Shown piece by piece: positions 27,567-51,525 of a DNA stretch of 64,000 bases (positions are counted from its first letter, which is position 1; each line of letters opens with the position of its first letter). Source of the stretch: Fistulifera solaris (taxonomy: Eukaryota); NCBI GenBank assembly GCA_030295235.1, contig AP026123.1, positions 434,001 to 498,000 of the forward strand, given 5' to 3'. A program made the position numbers and the translations under genes. Below the pieces are notes generated by a model, which ran no database searches, was not told the origin of the DNA, and saw nothing but the letters and a program-made list of their open reading frames with translations.

Positions 27567-29592
27567 ATGTCGGAAGAATACAATAGCACTGCCTTGAACG
27601 CCCGCGAGTTGGAATGGGCCAACAATCCCCCCGAGACCTTGGCCGCTCACAAGGCGAGAAATGGGCCGATTTGTCGTACGCGTTTTCCTCCCGAACCGAA
27701 TGGTTATTTGCACATCGGGCACGCGAAAAGTATGAACATGAACTTCAGTTTGGCTTTTCAGAAGTTAAATGTGCCTCCGGAACATCGTCGTACCATCTTC
27801 CGTTACGACGATACAAATCCCGATGCCGAAACGGCCGAGTACATTGATTCACTCAAACGCGATCTTGAGTGGCTCGGATGGAAGCCGGAACGGACGACCT
27901 ATTCGTCCGATAATTTCGGAAAGCTTTACGAGTTTGCGGTGGAACTTGTCAAAAGGAACTCGCCTACGTGTGTGACATGACCAAGGCCGAGATGGAGGCG
28001 CAGCGTGAGCTCGCGATGAAGCGAGCGAATGCGCGGGCCCGGGGACTCGATCCGGATGTGGAAGCTCCAATTACGGATCCGAATATTCTACCGGGTCGGA
28101 ACCGCAACACGAGTGTGGAACGAAACTTGGAGCTACTGGAAAAGATGAAGATGGGTCTTTTGCGGAAGGTCAGTACACCTTGCGTTTGAAGATGGACTTT
28201 GAATCGAGTAATCCGAACATGTACGATTTGGTGGCCTACCGCATCAAGTATACGCCGCACCCACATGCTGGTGACGGATGGTGCATCTACCCGTCTTATG
28301 ATTTCACACACGGCATTTGCGACTCGCTCGAAGACATCGATTACAGTATCTGCACGCTCGAATTCGAAACACGCCGCGAGCCCTACTACTGGATATTGCA
28401 CGCACTGGATCTCTTCCGTCCGGCGGTCTACGAAATGTCACGTCTCAACTTGCAGTATACTGTGCTATCAAAGCGTCGATTGATCAAGTTGGTCGATACA
28501 GGTGTCGTGCGAGGCTGGGATGATCCGCGCATGCCCACCGTCTCTGGTTTGCGTCGACGAGGCTACACCCCGGTCATTTTGAACACTTTTTGCGATGACA
28601 TTGGGGCAACAAGATCGGCAAATGTCGTGGAGATCAAAAAGCTGGAGCAGACGGCGCGTTTGGCCCTTGCCGCGACCAGTCGTCGTGCGATGGCCGCCTT
28701 GGATCCGATCAAAGTGGTGATCACCAACTACAGTGAACAGTCCGAAAACATGGTGTACGAAGTGCAGAATAGTCCCACAGATCCCGAAGCAGGGGTTCAT
28801 ACGGTCACGCTGACGGATGTTATCTACCTTGATTCGACTGACTTTCGTATGGAAGATTCCAAGGATTATTTTGGATTGGCTCCGAACAAAGCTGTTGGTC
28901 TCAAATATTACGGAGGTAACTTAGTATGCGAAGAAGTTATTGAGAAGAATGGCAAAATCGTTGAATTGAAAGGACATCTGGATAATGGCCCGGATCGTGT
29001 AAAACCCAAGACTTATTTGTCTTGGGTTCCGTCGAATAGCTTGCCGTGCGAGATCCGAGTGTACAATCATCTCTTCACCGTTCCTGAGCCATCCGATCTT
29101 TGGGAAGATGAAATCAACCCAGACTCGGAACAGGTGTTTGTGAATGCGTTGATCGATCCGTCGGTAGCTGAGGTTATTGACGTGAAAGATATTGACAAGT
29201 GGAAGTCCAATACGGCGTTGCAATTGGAACGATTTGGTTTCTTCGTGGTCGATCTTGACACGACGTTTGATTCAAAGACGCGCAAGGGATCGATCGTTTT
29301 GAATAGGACAGTAAGTCTTAAAGAAGATAAAGGCAAAAGTGGAGGCGAGAAGTCGGCGCCGGTCAATGACGGGCGGAAAGTAGTCTCCGCAGAAGAGAGA
29401 GAAGCGAGAATGAATATCGCTCCCGAGGATTTTTTCCGCCTGGCTCCTGAATACAATGGAAAATTTAGTAAGTTCGATGATGAAGGGTTCCCTACGCATG
29501 ATGAAGAAGGCAAGGAAGTGACTAAGAGTATGGCGAAGAAGTTGAAGAAAGAGCTTGACAAGCACAAGAAACTTGTGAGCAAGAAGAATTAA
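27567..29592 (+). CDS. QARS: Glutaminyl-tRNA synthetase; two 1-bp frameshifts (~27955, ~28160)
   Basis: TRFPPEPNGYLHIGHAK, RYDDTNP, WCIYPSYDFTH, SICTLEF, VLSKRRL, GWDDPRMPT, QLERFGFF, LNRTVSLKE. Confidence 0.95.
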
Positions 29593-42903: not shown

Positions 42904-43173
42904 ATGGCACTGACACTGAAAGCAGGTCAACGAAATGCGGCTGCGTCAAGACGTATCTCTCCCAGCGACAGAAGAGTCATGTTATTGCACAACAAGAGCC
43001 GTCTTTTCTTCCGAAATGTTCATCATTGTGTTACTTTTGGTCGCGTTCGTCATGCTTGGGGCGAACACGTCGAACGTCATCCAAGATCAGTCTCGTGGCT
43101 TCTTCGATATCTCTTCAAGGAACAAAATCAAACAATCAGCGAACGATCCGCTTAGCAACGACACCTGGAGGTC
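42904..43173 (+). pseudogene. 5' part of the ABHD14-like alpha/beta-hydrolase gene interrupted by the retrotransposon
   Basis: TM segment FIIVLLLVAFVMLG. Removing the element and one TSD copy gives the continuous reading ...RLATTPGG-LAYYSCPSSRPSLILLHG. Further indels lie upstream. Confidence 0.7.
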
Positions 43174-43574
43174 AGTCAGGAATATAATGTAGCTTAAACT
43201 ATAGGGATGGTTGCAACAAGCTTGGGGCCAATTCCAAACTCTTACAACAGGATATCTAACAAGTCTAGGCAAACAAATTAGATTATGATGTTACTCGCTA
43301 CGGCTGGGATAAATCTTGAGAGGAAGCCGAATTTGCGATCTTGTTGATGAAGTGAAATAACTGTGCCCACAATAGTAGAACGTATGGATGGAATAGTAGA
43401 TGAGAAGGAAATGGGCCCGATGACCTCCAAGACTTAGGGCGTTGGAAGCGTCCCATAAGATTCTTAACACTGAAACTTGAGGTGCTTGGGATAATTAGAT
43501 GAAAACATAGAAAAGGTAGATCAGGAGCAACCGTGCCAGCGTCAATACCGATCAGACGCGACGGATTACTGACT
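43174..43574 (-). repeat. 3' LTR (401 bp), termini AGTCAG...CTGACT
   Basis: Direct repeat of 50568-50972. Immediately preceded on the minus strand by the polypurine tract. Confidence 0.95.
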
Positions 43575-43585
43575 CTCCCTCTTGA
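43575..43585 (-). other. Polypurine tract (PPT)
   Basis: Minus-strand TCAAGAGGGAG abuts the first base of the 3' LTR. Confidence 0.85.
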
Positions 43586-43663
43586 CGGACCGAAGAGAAA
43601 GAGCTTTAAACTAAAGCTATGACACGAAGGGCAGTCACAACTTTCAGCTCCTGTCTGTAATTG

Positions 43664-46600
43664 TCAGAAGCCCATAAAGCGCTTGCGAAGATCCAAGAAC
43701 GTAGCGAATCGACCTTAGTAAAGATGTCGGCAAAATTATTCTTCGACTCGATCTTTTTGACTAGTAGATCGCCATTCTTGACATGTTCGCGAAACCAATG
43801 GTACTTCACTCGCGTAAAACTTAGACTGCGGAGTGTCTTCAGGTGCATTCGCCAAGGTGAGCGCCATTGTTGTCTTCGAAGATAACAGAATGGGTTCGAA
43901 CCTTGACCTCGGAATTTAACTTGAAACACTCGCACAATTCTCGAGCCACGATACGCATAGGGATAACTTGGCGTGCGCACATCGATAGAGAAATGTACTC
44001 CGCCATCATAGTGGACAAGCATGTCTCGACTATGAGCTGCGATTTCCAAGTGACTGGGCAGCCGCCAAAGCAAATGACAAAACCAGCGAGACTTAACTGA
44101 TTTCGGGTCAGTAGGGCGTTCAGAACCCCATGTTCCAGCGAAATCGGAATCAACATAAGCGTCAATAGCAACATGGTTGCCAGGCTTAAGAGTCAGTCCA
44201 TTCAAGCGTAGTCTGTAAATATCGAACAATTTTCTTCACAGCAACACCATGGCTTTTCTTGGGATTCGCGCTATAACGAGCGGCTTGAGACACTGCCATA
44301 GTGATGTCGGGACGGGTATTATTCGAAATAAACAACAACATGCCGATGACCGAACGGTAATCCCAATTTTCTGTAAACGGGTCACCATCAGGATCCGAAC
44401 CCAAAGCTTCACCTGCCTTCGCCGGAACCTTTCGATCATCCTTGGAGACTCGATCCGCGAGAGAATCCCACTGTAGAACTAATCTTATCAATTAACGGCG
44501 TCTGGGTTAAAAGAAATGAGTCTCCATTGCGCTTGACCTGAATTCCTAGGTACTGAGAAATAGTTCCTTCATCCGTGACTGGGAGTCCCACTTTCTTCAA
44601 TTCAGCTAGGAGATTATCGATCTTCTTCTGGTCATCAGCAATAACGAACTTGTCATCGACATAGAGACTAACAGCGATGCCATCACCGAAGTACAAGCAC
44701 GAATCCTTCGAGCACTGCTTCAAATTCAACGTCTTGGTAAAGATTTCGTGGCAATGCTGATAATACAACCGAGGCGCATCGGCCGCTCCATAAATAGAAC
44801 GGTGCACTTTCAAGCAGTAGTCAGCGGGGATTGCACCTTCAGGGATTTTGGAAAGTAGAAAGGGGATATTCGCTGACCCGATAGGAAGTGACATGAACTT
44901 TACTTCCTTCAACTTAGCTTGGACGAATGCATTCGACACGTCAAAACAGCGCGTGACATAATCAAAGCGTAGCGGCAGCGTGAGCATCATGCGAACTGTA
45001 GACCACGTTCGACCGGGCGTAAGTATCCTAAACGTGTTTCTCTAAATCTCCACGAAGACATAGGGCGAAGCTTTGTGCCGCTTGACTTCACCTGTAAACT
45101 GATTGCGTTTTGCGGCGAAAAGTCCAAGTTGACGGAACAATTTGCGCGCCGATGGCATGAGCTTCGTCCTTGTGAACGATCGTGAAGGTCTTGGCGTTCC
45201 ACAATTCTTCAAACTCGGTCTGCATTCCTTTAATAAATTCATCGCGATCGACAGCCTTGAGAACATCCCAGTACGTGAGGGTGTCAGGGTCGGAATTCTT
45301 CTTTTTCTTCTTCTTGACTGGTGGAGACGAAGACGAAGAAAGAACTTCTATCGCGGAAAGATACATCTTCATAGCTTCCGACTCATGCGCAATGCGTCCA
45401 TCCATAAATAACATTTCTTGGATTGCGAGACGTGCGATGTGCTGGAGCTGCCAAAGACCCAATTCGGCAAATCCGTACTCGTCGGCGAATTTCTTGGCAG
45501 GCTTGCCAAAATTCGAACGAGACGAACGACGCAAAACCGGAGGAGTTTCCTCTTCAACAGTTTCAGTCGGTGCGGAATCGGCAGCAGGGATAGGAATAGA
45601 CGGGGAGGCGGACTCGACAGTCGGCTCTGGAGGTGCGGGCGACTTCGGGCACGGCCCAAGGGTCCGGCATATCCTCAAACGGAATATCTGCTAACTCGTC
45701 GACGAAATCGGGCGGAGGAGGAGTGCTAAACGTAGCCACGTCCACAGCATACGGAGATGAAACGTTAGGACCGGCAGCATCTTGACTTGGAGACGGTTCT
45801 GGAAACAAGTCACCCTCGGTCTCCCTGTGATGCGAAGGTGCTAGGGCTGACTCCCTCTGAGGCAAAGACGGCGGATCCGGCTCCCTCCGAAGCGGAGCAT
45901 CAAAGGCGACCTTGCGGCGAAAGGTGTCACGCGGTTTTCCGATGCGATTCGACGAAACAGGACGAGTTCCACTCATTCGACGACGTTCTTGCCACTCTTC
46001 GGTCCACTCGGGACTCAGTTCGAACTCAAGAGTGTTGTCGGCATCATCCAACGACTGCCAATCGAGGGCGAGATTCGAACATTTTGTCCCAGGGATACTG
46101 CGAAAAATCAGGGATAGCATCGGCATCACTCTCCACAGTGAAGAACCAATCGTCGAATAGACAATGGAACTGCGAAGTGATATAGCCGGAATGGGGATTC
46201 AAAACCTTGGGAACACTCGAAGTACTTTTCACTGACTCCCATGTAAACCCAGCGCCCGAGAGCGCGGTTTCCACTAGGAATTTTTCCGCCCTTCGAGATT
46301 CCAGGGTCCAATACATAGACAGGGGAGCCCCAAACGTGCAAATCGGAATATTCTTGCGGATCGAGGGATCGAATTTGTCAACAATTCAATCGAAGAACGA
46401 TTTGCAGTATCTCGGCGAGGCACTCGATTCATGAGATGGGCTGCATGAAGAACTGCCATCGGCCACAATTTGGACTCAATAATTTCCGGCCAGTGAAGGG
46501 TCGCATGAATCATCATCGTGCAGCGTCATATTCATGAGCACACCGATCGCCGCTCGGCTGGACCATTGTGATGATGCGCGCCAGGAGCTGCAATTCGTTG

Positions 46601-48691
46601 AACTTGACGATTTTCTGCGAGATCCTCTTGAAATCCTTGCGAAGTAAACGACTTGTGACCGTCGAAAGCGTGCTCTTTGATGCGATCGGCGCCCGTGGTC
46701 GGCCATCCAATCTTCAAAAGCATGTTTTCCCAACAGAGTCTCGTGAGTGTCGAAAGTGGTGTGGAGATGAACTCGGACACAACCAGTCGCGGCATCTACC
46801 CAAATAGAACCACCGATATATTTGTTTCCTCCGACGCCAGTGCCAGACTCGGACCGTCCTTCCTTGTCACAATAAAAATGATCGACGAAAACTCGGTCGC
46901 CCGGCATAAGCTGCTCTCGCTTTGTAGCCATAACTTTATCAGGATCAACAACTACTTTCTTGCCTTCCTTAGATGTTTGACGCTGCTTGCCGTGAGTTAC
47001 AGGCGAGGCATCCACACTTAGGGGCTTCGGAGGCTTTCTTGTCGGCCGTCTTGTTTCGACTTGCTTTTTGAAATAATTCGATTCGCTGAGGGAGGCGCTT
47101 GACGACATCCAAATGAACATGACCCAGGATTTGATGCCATTGCAAAAGCGTCTTTTGAGGCTCCGATAGATTCAGATTTCGCTGATCTACGGCCGTCAAA
47201 TTAGCTTCGAACGGTTCGTCATCGTCATCCTTGCAGCGCTTGTTTCGAAAATGTGTCCGGAACCATATCAACTTCGAAATCGATGGGATAAACGACTCCG
47301 ATGAACAGGTTGGACCGCACGTCGAGGGGAACTTCGATGGGAGGCTGATACGGTGCAGATGCTTCAGAAGGAGCCGGTCCGATGTCGACTTCGACCGTCG
47401 GACGCTCACCTCTGTCGCATTACACATCTTCGAACCACGGGCGTACCTGCATGCACATTCTCAGCATCTCGGAGTAGGGTTTGAGTGCTGATCAAATTGC
47501 GGCTGCAAGTCGGGGGCGTAGTAGGCATGCCCGCGATAAATCGACCATTTTCCGTTCGTTCCGAGCTTTGCACGTGAAGAGACCTTCGCCTTCGACTCGA
47601 ACCGACCCTGTGATACCATGGAGCAGGGGTCCAAAGATAGTCTCAGGTGGTGAATCAAAGAGGCGAGGATCATTCAACAAGTGACCAGAAGCACCGCTAT
47701 CGTAGACCACTTCGGCGCCAGGCTCTTCCCTGATTTGTGAGGAAGTTAAACTCCTCCCTCGACCGGGAGAAAGCGTGCGAAAAGTTGCGAGGGCCAAAAA
47801 GACGTTCCACTTCCTGAGCCATACTCTGCTCAACAAGTCTTGCCCCTATCTGATCCGTGTCCTCGAGTTCCGTATGTAGGAAAGCGGTACTGAAGTCCAC
47901 GTCATGCGAAAAGTCGAAGTCAATCCCGCGCACAGTCATGAGTGGCAAAGAATCCGGCGGACTTGGAACGAAATGAACAGAATTAAGCCCAACTAGACGC
48001 AGTCGGTCGGTGATAGTTCGAATCCACTGACTGCCAATGCGTGCGGTAGGAGGGGGCCTAAATTGCGGCCGCGGAATGCTCGAGTTCCCAACCCAATAGC
48101 GACAGCTTCTCTCCCTCTGAACGAGGCATGAAGGGGTCGGTATAGGGAAAATAGTGCGCAGCGATTATCTTGAAAATATCGCGGCGTCGCCCAAACTGCT
48201 TGCGAAGGTCGGTATACAGGGATTCTTCAAGGCGTTTCTTGTAATCTCCAATGTCAGGAAAGAAACGTTGGTTCCGCAAGCGAATAGGAAAAGAGCGATG
48301 GACAGCGCGATAGTAGGAGCGACCCGGACGTGGGGGCGACGAGCGAGAATTCTTCGGAAATTCCACTGGGAGTCCCGAGGAGATTTCTTGCGCGACGCTT
48401 TGCGTGTCCGGTGAACAACGGAAATCGCAACACAGAAAACACTTGAACTACCGACAGAAAAGCCGATAAGTCAACAAACAGAAAGCGAAGTCCGAGGAAG
48501 AAAGGAAAGACTCTGAAAATGCTTGCAGAAAATCCGCCAATCGTGACCCACTTCGCGATAGAGGAAAGTACGGTGACGTAATTTCCCATCGCAATGCGGC
48601 CGAAAAGCATCGTTAGCAACAAACAAGTCCAAAACACAAACCAAACCTTTTCGTCCCCGACGTGAGAATCGGAGTCCCTCCGACCCTCAAG
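43664..48691 (-). CDS. pol: Copia pol polyprotein (hydrophobic leader, protease, integrase, RT, RNase H), fragmented by many indels
   Basis: YDSGASGHL (PR, ~47690), LLQWHQILGH (IN zinc region), HHHNGPAERR (IN core), FDVSNAFVQA and LYVDD (RT), AYVDSDFAG, FEDNNGA and NFADIFTK (RNase H). Confidence 0.9.
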
Positions 48692-50514
48692 TCAGAGGTT
48701 GATCCCCTCATCCGAAACGACTTCACAGAAATTGAAGCTCGGAGGAACCTTTCCGGAACCGAGAAAATCCTTCTTCATCTCGATCAACTGCTCGGTCGTC
48801 ACCCTGACATTCTTTCCGTGATCCTTCGGAAGATGAGTCGAAACCCAACGATTACACTCGCGGGCACCACCAATACAAGCGGTTATCGACGACTTTCATC
48901 TGCTTTTCGCCGTCCTTGGGGGCCGGGTGATCGATTCCATTTTTCTTGCGATTGTTCCGGTTTTTCTTGGGATTTTTAGAATTACCGGAATTCGAGTTCT
49001 TGCACTTGGGACAATCCGCTTTCTTCACTCCTGGGGTGTTGCACCCCCAACACTTGAGATTCGGATTCGTCCCGCCCTTGGCTTCGTTCAAATAGAACTG
49101 GGGCGACGCTTTCTTGTCCTTGCTCGCGACCCATTTCCAGTGTCCGCCATCGCGCAAACTGTCATACAACTGCATGGCCTTGTCCAACACATTCTCCCAA
49201 TGCAGGTGTTTGTCGCGCAAAAGAGCCATCAACTGTCCATTGGAGTGATCGCCCAAAGTGCGGATAGCCTGGACAATCGGATCGTAGAACGAACGACGAA
49301 TTTCTTCAGAAAATCCGACAGCGCCAATTTCGAAGAACGCATCAATCAACCAGAGCATGAGTGTCTTATCCAACTCATTACCGGCGTTCGAGCAAGCGAA
49401 GTTCCTTGCGAATGGCGGTGCAGAATTGTTTCACATCATGTCCGGTGAAGTCCTTGATTTTGCGTTTCATCAACTGCGCTTTGTCTTCTTCGAGGCCACG
49501 GATCGACGTGGGATGGATTTCGTTGCAAATCATCATAAGAATGATAACGGCAGGCAAATCCTCGTAGTCCATGTACGGCGAGATCGTCGAGCGAAGGTCT
49601 TCGTCCATATGGTTGCTAAACAAGGTCATCCATGCGGAGTTGTTCTCTTTGTCGTAAGAATCCCACTCCCAGAGCATCATGAGTAGTTCCACCTTTCCCT
49701 TTTCCGTCAACCAGTTGAAAAGAGTATGGAAGTCCGGGACATAGAGCATCTTCTTCGGATCGTTCGGATCGGGCCAATAAAGCACAGTGTCCATACCGTG
49801 AATCTTGCCATGCGCACTCAAACGAGAGAGAAGATCATACAAGTCACACTTAAGCGTAAACTTGAAGTCTTCGATCTTGCAGCGTTTGGTGTATCCGCGC
49901 TCTTCGGCAGAAGTTCCAGGGACATAACGTTTGCAATCGGGCGTATCCAGAGACTTTCCAGCGAGGCCACTCCAATCATGCTTCGGAGCACCACCCATAA
50001 CGACCGTAGTTGCATTCTTCAGAATTCCCATCTTCGAGCTTCAAGACTGGGAACATTGGAATAGACACTACCACTTGGAGTGAAAGGCGTTTCTGGGTGA
50101 GAAGGTGTGGTCACCGGAGGCATAAGTCCAGCCTCAGAAAAGCGAACGCCAGCTGCACCTCGAGCGGTCGTCACCATGGGTTTTTCAGTAGCGCTTGTAG
50201 TCGTAACAGGGCTTAACGACAGGTGCATCATCGCGTCCAGTAGCGGCAACTTGAGCGTCGTACATCGCTTGCAAGTTGGCAATGGTCGCTTTGAGTTCAT
50301 CCAACGGCATCGGAGCTGCAATGTCCGTAAGGACATCGGCCGACGGTTTCAGAACGAGAGTAGGGACAGCGTCTCCGGAAGGTTCTCCAGAAACATCGGT
50401 ATCCTCGGCATCAAACATCTCTTCTTCATCGAGATCGGGGTCAGGGTTGATCACCAAATCCTCTCCGTCGCGAGCGGGAGGATTCTCTTGGTCTCCAGGG
50501 TTCATCGGGTTCAT
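48692..50514 (-). CDS. gag: Copia gag polyprotein, fragmented by indels
   Basis: ORF pieces 50185-50514, 50019-50336, 49378-50031, 48852-49373. HGMDTVLY core, CWGC...CPKC and WCxECNRWVSTH Cys/His motifs. Ends at TGA 48692-48694. Confidence 0.8.
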
Positions 50515-50555
50515 CGTGCACAGGGGTTGCGTAGCGGAAGTAACAGAGCCACCGA

Positions 50556-50568
50556 GGCAGTGCTACCA
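50556..50568 (-). other. Primer-binding site, probably for initiator tRNA-Met
   Basis: Minus-strand TGGTAGCACTGCC is complementary to a tRNA 3' end ...CAGUGCU-ACCA, implying an A1:U72 pair typical of eukaryotic initiator tRNA. Its first T is the last LTR base. Confidence 0.7.
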
Positions 50569-50972
50569 GTCAGGAATATAATGTAGCTTAAACTATAGGG
50601 ATGGTTGCAACAAGCTTGGGGCCAATTCCAAACTCTTACAACAGGATATCTAACAAGTCTAGGCAAACAAATTAGATTATGATGTTACTCGCTACGCTGG
50701 GATAAATCTTGAGAGGAAGCGAATTTGCGATCTTGTTGATGAAGTGAAATAACTGTGCCCACAATAGTAGAACGTATGGATGGAATAGTAGATGAGAAGG
50801 AAATGGGCCCGATGACCTCCAAGACTTAGGCGAGGGTCGTTGGAAGCGTCCCATAAGATTCTTAACACTGAAACTTGAGGTGCTTGGGATAATTAGATGA
50901 AAACATAGAAAAGGTAGATCAGGAGCAACCGTGCCAGCGTCAATACCGATCAGACGCGACGGATTACTGACT
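50568..50972 (-). repeat. 5' LTR (405 bp), termini AGTCAG...CTGACT
   Basis: Direct repeat of 43174-43574, differing by four small indel regions. Confidence 0.95.
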
Positions 50973-51525
50973 AGGTCTCGCGTATTATTCTTGTCCTTCG
51001 TCAAGACCTTCTTTGATCTTATTACACGGCTCAGCGTTCACCAAGGAAGACTGGAAGACTTCAGAGATTTTGCAGAATTTTTGTCGGCGTTGGTCCGTCG
51101 TAGCGCTCGATTTGAATGTTAAAACAAGCTACGAGCAACTTTTGGAAGTGATAAGGGACTTAAATGATGCCGGTCAAGTTACTTTGCCCATTAAAGGACT
51201 GGTGACTCCGTCGGCTTCCGGTTATGCTGTGATGAGCAGCTTGCAGGAAAATCTGGCAGCCTTGACGTCTCTCATTCAGTCATGGGTCCCCGTTGCTTGC
51301 AATGCTCTGCTGTCGGTTGATGCAGCCACATTAATACAGCTCAATGGATGGCCGATACTTGCAATCTACGGCGATCGCGACCCGTCTGGGAAGCGTAGCT
51401 CGGATCTACTAAAGCAACATTCGGGGGCGACTGTACAAGAGCTGTCCGGTCGACACCCATGCTATTTAGATTCCCCTGTGGAGTTTGTTGACACCATCAA
51501 CGATTATTTGAACGGCATCGAATAG
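50973..51525 (+). pseudogene. 3' part (whole catalytic domain) of the ABHD14-like alpha/beta hydrolase
   Basis: ILLHGSAFTKEDW, VVALDL, LVTPSASG (nucleophile elbow), AIYGDRD, GRHPCYLDSP, as in ABHD14A/B. Confidence 0.82.

Follow-up and report, generated by a model that had tools for sequence, protein, structure and literature searches.

An in-frame UGA enclosed by a strong hairpin at the gag-pol junction of a Ty1/copia-type retrotransposon of Fistulifera solaris: a candidate read-through signal

The stretch of DNA analyzed here (the window, 64 kb of contig AP026123.1 of Fistulifera solaris) carries on its minus strand a 7.8-kb retrotransposon bounded by long terminal repeats (LTRs). Its gag and pol genes share one reading frame and are separated by a UGA codon, and this codon sits in the most stable local hairpin of the whole element. 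We favor, with confidence a little above even, programmed read-through of the UGA as the way in which the Gag-Pol polyprotein would be produced. The control of the ratio of Gag to Gag-Pol in copia-type elements is understood for few hosts, and Tca2, the only copia element in which such a UGA was known, is described as using a non-canonical bypass. The junction described here is a compact candidate signal, in which UGA-CU is combined with the strongest hairpin of the element at a place where synonymous sites are apparently unchanged.

The gag-pol junction and the element that carries it

The coding features on which the analysis turns are the following.

48692..50514, minus strand: gag, from ATG 50514-50512 (MNPMNPGD) to TGA 48694-48692
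48692..48694, minus strand: gag stop UGA, followed by C-U-U and preceded by CUC, the Leu codon that ends EGINL
43664..48691, minus strand: pol frame, opening right after the gag stop in the gag frame and ending at TGA 43666-43664
48587..48637, minus strand: possible pol starts, namely GTG 48637-48635, ATG 48610-48608 and ATG 48589-48587

They were compared with database proteins, the gag relatives among them being five proteins from four lineages.

P0001: gag, 613 aa, 50% identity to a 192-aa gag piece of the window
P0002: gag, 637 aa, 43% identity to the same 192-aa piece
P0008: gag, 604 aa, on one 7185-nt contig with P0003
P0009: gag, partial
P0010: gag, 602 aa, 84% identity to the window family (value against P0008), on one contig with P0004
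P0003: pol, 1655 aa, intact, mapping to the post-stop frame
P0004: pol, 1625 aa, 87% identical to P0003

On the minus strand the junction reads GGG ATC AAC CTC TGA CTT GAG GGT CGG, with the C that follows the stop at 48691. An earlier reading made from the sequence alone had the gag C-terminal frame end at TGA 48694-48692 with C as the next letter, and this is what was found: a 67-aa frame (48692..48895) with ...DEGINL at its end closes at this codon. The same reading had the frame continue for about 145 codons beyond the stop, which agrees with an open stretch of 145 codons at 48254..48691 (translation table 1, stop to stop). Placement of the relatives by tblastn confirms that gag and pol are in frame. 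The gag C-terminus of P0001 and P0002 falls on 48859-48695 and the N-terminus of P0003 on 48637-48386, both in tblastn frame -1, for which the coordinate mod 3 is 1. The alternative frames are closed close to the stop, the -1 frame by stops 4 codons upstream and 1 codon downstream of it and the +1 frame after 25 codons. Frameshifting in either direction was ruled out, because pol stays in the frame of gag and both alternative frames close near the stop.

Two further ways of accounting for the UGA were also rejected. It does not act as a sense codon, as P0008 and P0003 (604 and 1655 codons) were called as open with a genetic code that reads UGA as a stop. Insertion of selenocysteine would need a SECIS element, and a search of 43000-51100 on both strands against Rfam returned nothing at E up to 1. 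All candidate pol starts lie 18-35 codons beyond the UGA. The GTG at 48637-48635 is the start that the gene caller gave to P0003 (MFWTCLLL...) in the post-stop frame, and the ATG at 48589-48587 (MGNY) is the start of P0004. A second TGA-CTT (TGT TGA CTT ATC) occurs at 48471-48473 on the minus strand, 73 codons past the gag stop and in the -1 frame; it is most likely a coincidence of T-rich sequence.

The element to which the junction belongs is a recently inserted Ty1/copia-type LTR retrotransposon in a diatom-like host, and the hallmarks of this type are all present: an LTR pair, a target-site duplication, a site resembling a primer-binding site (PBS) and a polypurine tract.

50568..50972, minus strand: 5' LTR, with AGTCAG...CTGACT ends
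43174..43574, minus strand: 3' LTR, with the polypurine tract AAGAGGGAG (43583-43575) just before it
50977-50973 and 43173-43169: target-site duplication GACCT, 5 bp, on both flanks of the element
directly after the 5' LTR, minus strand: PBS-like site (T)GGTAGCACTGCC, also written TGGTAGCACTGCC

The two LTRs are 97.8% alike across 408 columns and are distinguished by three indels (one of 6 nt and two of 1 nt) and by no more than one substitution. No second copy of the element was detected by blastn within the 64-kb window, and no tRNA genes were found in it.

The coding capacity of pol is seen best in P0003, the intact form, which consists of an N-terminal region of ~310 aa followed by protease, integrase, RVT_2 and a C-terminal region. 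Pfam places Pol_BBD at residues 312-389, gag_pre-integrs at 481-549, SH3_retrovirus at 759-827 and RVT_2 at 1160-1384 (E 1.7e-27). This order of protease-like barrel, pre-integrase, integrase SH3 and RVT_2 is that of Ty1/copia elements, and RVT_2 is also matched by a window piece at 44436-45041 (E 4.5e-19). The N-terminal region that precedes the protease (47750-48691, minus strand; P0003 residues 1-310) has no Pfam match. Residues ~43-75 are hydrophobic (KD-19 maximum 2.09) and a very basic segment comes next. This part of pol is less conserved, with ~67-80% identity between P0003 and P0004 versus 76-97% in the remaining pol. A HMMER search with the post-stop 145-aa frame against 1.84 billion representatives gave P0004 as the only match, and P0003 residues 1-310 had no usable match in the ESM Atlas.

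A hairpin around the stop codon

The sequence-only reading had described an 11-bp stem with two G-U pairs and a GGA loop (48688-48678 / 48674-48664) shortly after the stop. Folding of 48700-48630 reproduces this stem, and the predicted structure extends further and takes in the stop codon itself.

48655..48697, minus strand: extended hairpin, 19 bp, by fold prediction
48689-48678 / 48674-48663, minus strand: upper stem, 12 bp, with loop GGA at 48677-48675
48697-48691 / 48661-48655, minus strand: lower stem, 7 bp, with the UGA inside

The fold of 48700-48630 has an energy of -29.6 kcal/mol (z -3.17), and 2 of 200 shuffled sequences were equally stable. When the sense strand of the element was divided into 7,756 overlapping segments of 45 nt, the hairpin ranked first with -29.2, compared with a mean of -7.3 (sd 3.5) and a runner-up of -20.9. 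It also ranked first among 42,638 such segments taken in steps of 3 on both strands across the 64 kb. The hairpin is specific to the sense strand because it contains four G-U pairs, and the opposite strand folds to -18.0 only. For a larger fold of 201 nt around the junction the z score is -4.05 and none of 200 shuffles was equally stable. The stem starts 3 nt past the stop and forms a simple hairpin with a 3-nt loop, without the spacer and pseudoknot of the type found in murine leukemia virus (MuLV). In Rfam the junction matched only a CRISPR repeat and MIR2275, each with E >1.

The runner-up among the local folds (47368-47412, minus strand, -20.9) is located in pol just past the protease region. 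On the plus strand a fold of -25.4 occurs at 27997-28041, far from the element.

Reliability of the window and conservation of the junction

Six sequencing runs are listed for the element, four of which (X1-X4) carry part of it; none is recorded as RNA. Contigs of these four runs were placed on 47000-50600. The warning of the sequence-only reading that the region is rich in indels was well founded, since in this interval 12 listed and 21 unlisted indels separate the X1 and X2 contigs from the window. The contigs of these two runs fill 30 of 30 bins, and at 11 of the 12 listed indels they share the same deviation from the window; substitutions between the window and the short-read contigs are few. 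As both the LTRs and the contigs differ mostly by indels, the frames of the window are not to be trusted without short-read support. Reading frames anywhere in the window may be unreliable, and the pattern looks like long-read assembly error. In the window copy gag consists of four frame pieces, which are split by indels of 1-3 nt that the short-read contigs lack. At 48859 and 49383 the contigs have one base fewer, with which the frameshifts that split gag are gone, and the corrected gag agrees with intact relatives such as P0008 (...WWCPQCNRW). Many indels also interrupt pol in the window copy.

The contigs of X1, X2 and X3 are identical to the window at 48692-48694. Record 12 of X2 (48674-49474) deviates by the two gag indels only, with zero substitutions. 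Record 11 of the same run (47879-48696) has 9 gap letters with a net of +1; the four listed indels account for 6 of these letters with a net of 0, and the rest are one +1 and a +1/-1 pair. The +1 near 48420 is required by P0003, the match of which exits the post-stop frame at that point. In record 20 of X3 (48505-48751) there are two gap letters with a net of 0. In X4, record 27 has a loose end in which a base is gained near 48661/48660 and one A is lost at 48651. When this pair of indels is applied, VGDE is changed to DRGR (three codons changed), and the frame and the upper stem stay intact. The hairpin corrected in this way has a one-base bulge in its lower stem and an energy of -25.4; it is still the best of the element, and 1 of 500 shuffles equals it. 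The frame relation between the gag stop and the start of pol is unaffected by any indel of the window.

These data bear on a simple explanation, namely that decay of a dead copy or faulty assembly created the stop and that the true element has a single gag-pol open reading frame (ORF). The many indels of the window copy would fit such an explanation. However, three runs yield contigs that agree with the window at the stop, no more than one substitution separates the two LTRs, and the five database gag proteins all stop at the same residue, so that we regard it as having almost no chance of being correct.

The possibility that relatives have a sense codon at this site was removed by the same five proteins (P0001, P0002, P0008, P0009 and P0010), each of which ends in ...EGINL. 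The identity of the stop as UGA applies directly to the window family and by inference to the P0010-like lineage. The gag stop is a conserved feature of these elements, with pol next in the same frame. The EGINL motif (48695-48709, minus strand) is invariant in all five proteins, though they are 43-84% identical overall; it might serve as a protease site or belong to the recoding signal.

A comparison at the DNA level was made with a diverged lineage represented by metagenome unitigs of X4, which come from one sample with a depth of ~3 and were read by hand. Records 29 and 30 both have G>A (plus strand) at 48721, which corresponds to the V-to-I replacement of P0009 and P0010, and both have a third codon position changed synonymously at 48704; synonymous changes at 48698 and 48701 are present as well in one of the two. 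Unitigs built from 31-letter words are expected to overlap by 30 nt. An overlap of this length is present here: records 29 and 30 stop at 48668, and record 28, with 0 differences, reaches to 48697. The shared 30 nt (48668-48697) run from the last Leu codon and the UGA with its C through the 5' arm and the loop into the 3' arm, most of which is included. Judged from this unitig overlap, the segment appears to have been kept while synonymous sites flanking it changed. The sequence-only reading had made conservation of the stem a test of its proposal. The stop, the C and most of the upper stem are apparently identical in the P0010-like lineage; the lower stem is only partly kept.

The 30 loose letters of record 28 past 48665 read F-D-R-G-R-K-L-W-F-C in the gag frame, and the short-read-supported window family has H-D-R-G-R-K-V-W-F over the same stretch. 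The nine post-hairpin codons compared with this single low-depth unitig show 3 synonymous and 2 replacement differences, and the other frames share little. Both sequences retain D-R-G-R-K despite the three synonymous changes. The nine codons lie 10-18 codons past the UGA and precede all ATG and GTG codons of the pol frame. A coding-type pattern ahead of the first AUG, of which one unitig of depth ~3 gives an indication here, would favor translation across the stop over an intron at this place and over initiation at a downstream AUG.

Searches for further relatives were made in other collections. The exact 26-nt junction pattern was absent from the genome-contig and viral-contig collections, and peptide scans with 147 pattern matches in genome contigs and 442 in viral contigs gave no relative by tblastn. 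A metagenome scan with the gag C-terminus produced 59 stretches, and three loci (L001-L003) were rejected as chance matches. These belong to one unrelated contig family in which only 'VDNRIYWW' matches and the frame is otherwise not gag-like.

One 94-nt contig of X1 contains 34 telomere-like letters (CCCTAA-type) between 30-nt pieces of 49536-49565 and ~49976-50005. Either an artefact of the graph or a truncated copy beside telomeric repeats could explain it.

Possible routes to Gag-Pol

According to the mechanism that we favor, most ribosomes on the full-length RNA would terminate at UGA 48694-48692, and Gag would be set free. A few would instead accept a near-cognate tRNA at the UGA and proceed in frame into pol, so that the Gag-Pol polyprotein would be made at a low ratio, as particle assembly requires. 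The UGA-CU context and the hairpin may promote this bypass, either through slowing of the ribosome or through an action of the hairpin at the mRNA entry channel. The stop is in a context described as leaky, CTC TGA CTT, with C and then U after the UGA (PMC2194720, PMC10085805). The coincidence of the strongest of 7,756 folds with the exact position of the stop, together with apparently unchanged synonymous sites, is most simply tied to recoding. The proposal of programmed read-through made in the sequence-only reading is partly supported: gag and pol share a frame, the position of the stop is conserved, and the hairpin is unusually stable. The bypass would most likely be read-through, and the geometry is not the classic one.

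Several observations weigh against read-through. The stem begins 3 nt past the stop, unlike the 8-nt spacer of MuLV-type signals, and with the UGA in the A site the footprint of the ribosome would leave about half of the upper stem melted. The terminator of pol at 43666-43664 is likewise a TGA followed by C (TTC TGA CAA), which means that the tetranucleotide alone is not distinctive. The unitig evidence is from one metagenome at a depth of ~3 with an inferred k-1 overlap, and the contigs were placed only by their resemblance to the window, which favors conserved islands. A public gene model, P0005, removes the stop through an intron. Finally, 300 nt of the Tca2 junction around its in-frame UGA failed to direct read-through in the reporter assays described in PMC2194720. 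The geometry, the TGA-C at the end of pol and the failure of the Tca2 reporter are the reasons that our confidence in read-through is held only slightly above even.

The gene model just mentioned (P0005; Fistulifera solaris GAX16837.1, 2225 aa) joins ...FNFCEV to WVTIGG... and in doing so skips the following segment.

48551..48718, minus strand: predicted intron, GT..AG, 168 nt, skipped in P0005, containing the stop and the hairpin

If this in-frame intron were removed from a minority of the transcripts, the spliced RNA would encode Gag-Pol and the unspliced RNA would serve for Gag and as packaged genome. The length is a multiple of 3, the ends are GT and AG, and the 3' side is acceptable, with a CTAAC ~60 nt and a pyrimidine run ~10-20 nt upstream of the AG. 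In addition, the 201-nt fold pairs both ends of the intron in an outer stem. Splicing at gag-pol occurs in barley BARE. It is also used by Drosophila copia (PMC2194720). On the other hand, gene predictors routinely invent introns across in-frame stops, and the donor GTTTCG does not have the purine at +3 and the G at +5 of the consensus that pairs with U1. P0004 has P in place of K ahead of this W, which makes an AG before the TGG impossible in that lineage. The apparently coding-type pattern of the nine post-hairpin codons (one unitig) falls inside the supposed intron, and all contigs retain the 168-nt stretch and show no joints, a weak argument as it concerns contigs only. The intron of P0005 is probably an annotation device that bridges the in-frame stop and not a real one, and we consider splicing quite unlikely. 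The practical consequence is that public gene models of such elements cross the stop by means of a predicted intron.

Alternatively, pol could be expressed separately, starting at AUG 48610 or 48589 (MLFGRIAMGNY) on a subgenomic RNA from a promoter in the junction or after internal ribosome entry. In that case the UGA would simply terminate gag, and some other role would fall to the hairpin. The AUG of MGNY is common to the P0003 and P0004 lineages, the hydrophobic N-terminus of pol resembles a leader, and a weak internal promoter is described in the Tca2 junction (PMC2194720). Yet the exact in-frame layout with both other frames closed would be needless for a separately translated pol, and apparently coding-type substitutions (one unitig) are found upstream of the first AUG. 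Free Pol would moreover need another way into particles, a point of general retroelement biology also made in PMC2194720, and in the Tca2 experiments reported there Pol went with the promoter in the LTR rather than with that in the junction. Independent expression of pol appears an unlikely route.

It is also conceivable that the context of the UGA is sufficient for its bypass and that the hairpin serves Gag binding and packaging, dimerization, or a pause for packaging in cis, in which case its overlap with the stop would be historical. The stem is too near the stop for the classic geometry of a stimulator, for which the 8-nt spacer of MuLV is the example, and no Rfam family matches the hairpin. 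The lower stem is bulged in the short-read-supported sequence, with -25.4 instead of -29.2, and is kept only in part in the X4 relative. What such a division of roles leaves unaccounted for is that the strongest of 7,756 folds lies exactly on the stop and that synonymous sites there are apparently unchanged; we give it a low probability.

A more speculative option is that the hairpin with the stop inside its helix is a new recoding signal of a small clade of diatom copia elements, which would act by read-through with a novel geometry or by a hop of tRNA-Leu from CUC to CUU. In the hopping variant the peptidyl-tRNA-Leu would pass over the UGA from a take-off stem, and no residue would be inserted for the stop. 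In phage T4 gene 60 a take-off codon is followed by a stop inside a stem-loop, with a matching codon downstream. The order Leu CUC-UGA-CUU found here is similar in that the stop follows a possible take-off codon and a matching codon comes after it. The T4 bypass differs in being bacterial, in spanning a 50-nt gap and in using a nascent-peptide signal, and we know of no eukaryotic precedent for hopping over a stop. A new signal of this kind is regarded as improbable.

Read-through of an in-frame UGA, the mechanism preferred above, can be compared with several known systems. The extended stem-loops of some alphaviruses begin further downstream than the stem found here. The signal of Sindbis virus and other alphaviruses is similar in having UGA followed by C, but it belongs to the replicase of an RNA virus and not to a gag-pol junction. 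Moloney MuLV shares the in-frame stop between gag and pol; it is a retrovirus, its stop is UAG, and it has an 8-nt spacer and a pseudoknot. The MuLV stop is bypassed at ~5% with the help of 3' RNA structure (PMC2194720).

The closest counterpart is Tca2 (pCal) of Candida albicans, which is also a Ty1/copia element with gag and pol in frame, one UGA between them and a predicted RNA structure on the 3' side. Tca2 has an 8-nt purine-rich spacer and a pseudoknot, whereas the structure found here is a plain hairpin that is 3 nt off and has a lower stem enclosing the stop. The 300-nt Tca2 junction gave 0.3% read-through in yeast, where an internal promoter confounded the first assays, and its authors concluded that bypass is non-canonical (PMC2194720). 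The existence of Tca2 also shows that the statement of the sequence-only reading that copia elements usually use one ORF, splicing or frameshifting is too strong if it is taken to exclude an in-frame UGA.

The Tj1, Tosmo1-3 and Tcry1 elements of fission yeasts likewise have an in-frame TGA between gag and pol in a TGA-CT context. They are Ty3/gypsy elements, the codon before the stop is GAA where CTC is present here, and the text consulted mentions no strong hairpin for them (PMC10085805). The TGA-CT at their gag stop is strictly conserved and is interpreted as a signal for programmed read-through, in line with the positive effect of CU after UGA (PMC10085805). Apart from MuLV, Tca2 and the fission-yeast Ty3/gypsy elements, an in-frame stop is also known between pol and env of SIRE1 (PMC2194720, PMC10085805). 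An in-frame UGA between gag and pol is already known from Tca2 and the Tj1-type elements, and the unusual part of the present junction is the placement and strength of the hairpin.

For diatoms, we found no element with an analyzed recoding signal in the literature searched. The CoDi copia elements resemble the present one in being young Ty1/copia elements of diatoms, and the text on CoDi elements in Maumus et al. (2009), in the part consulted, contains no analysis of such a signal. The LTRs of the element described here end in AGTCAG...CTGACT and not in the usual TG...CA. Among the 26 diatom copia families listed by Maumus et al. (2009), 3 do not have TG/CA ends.

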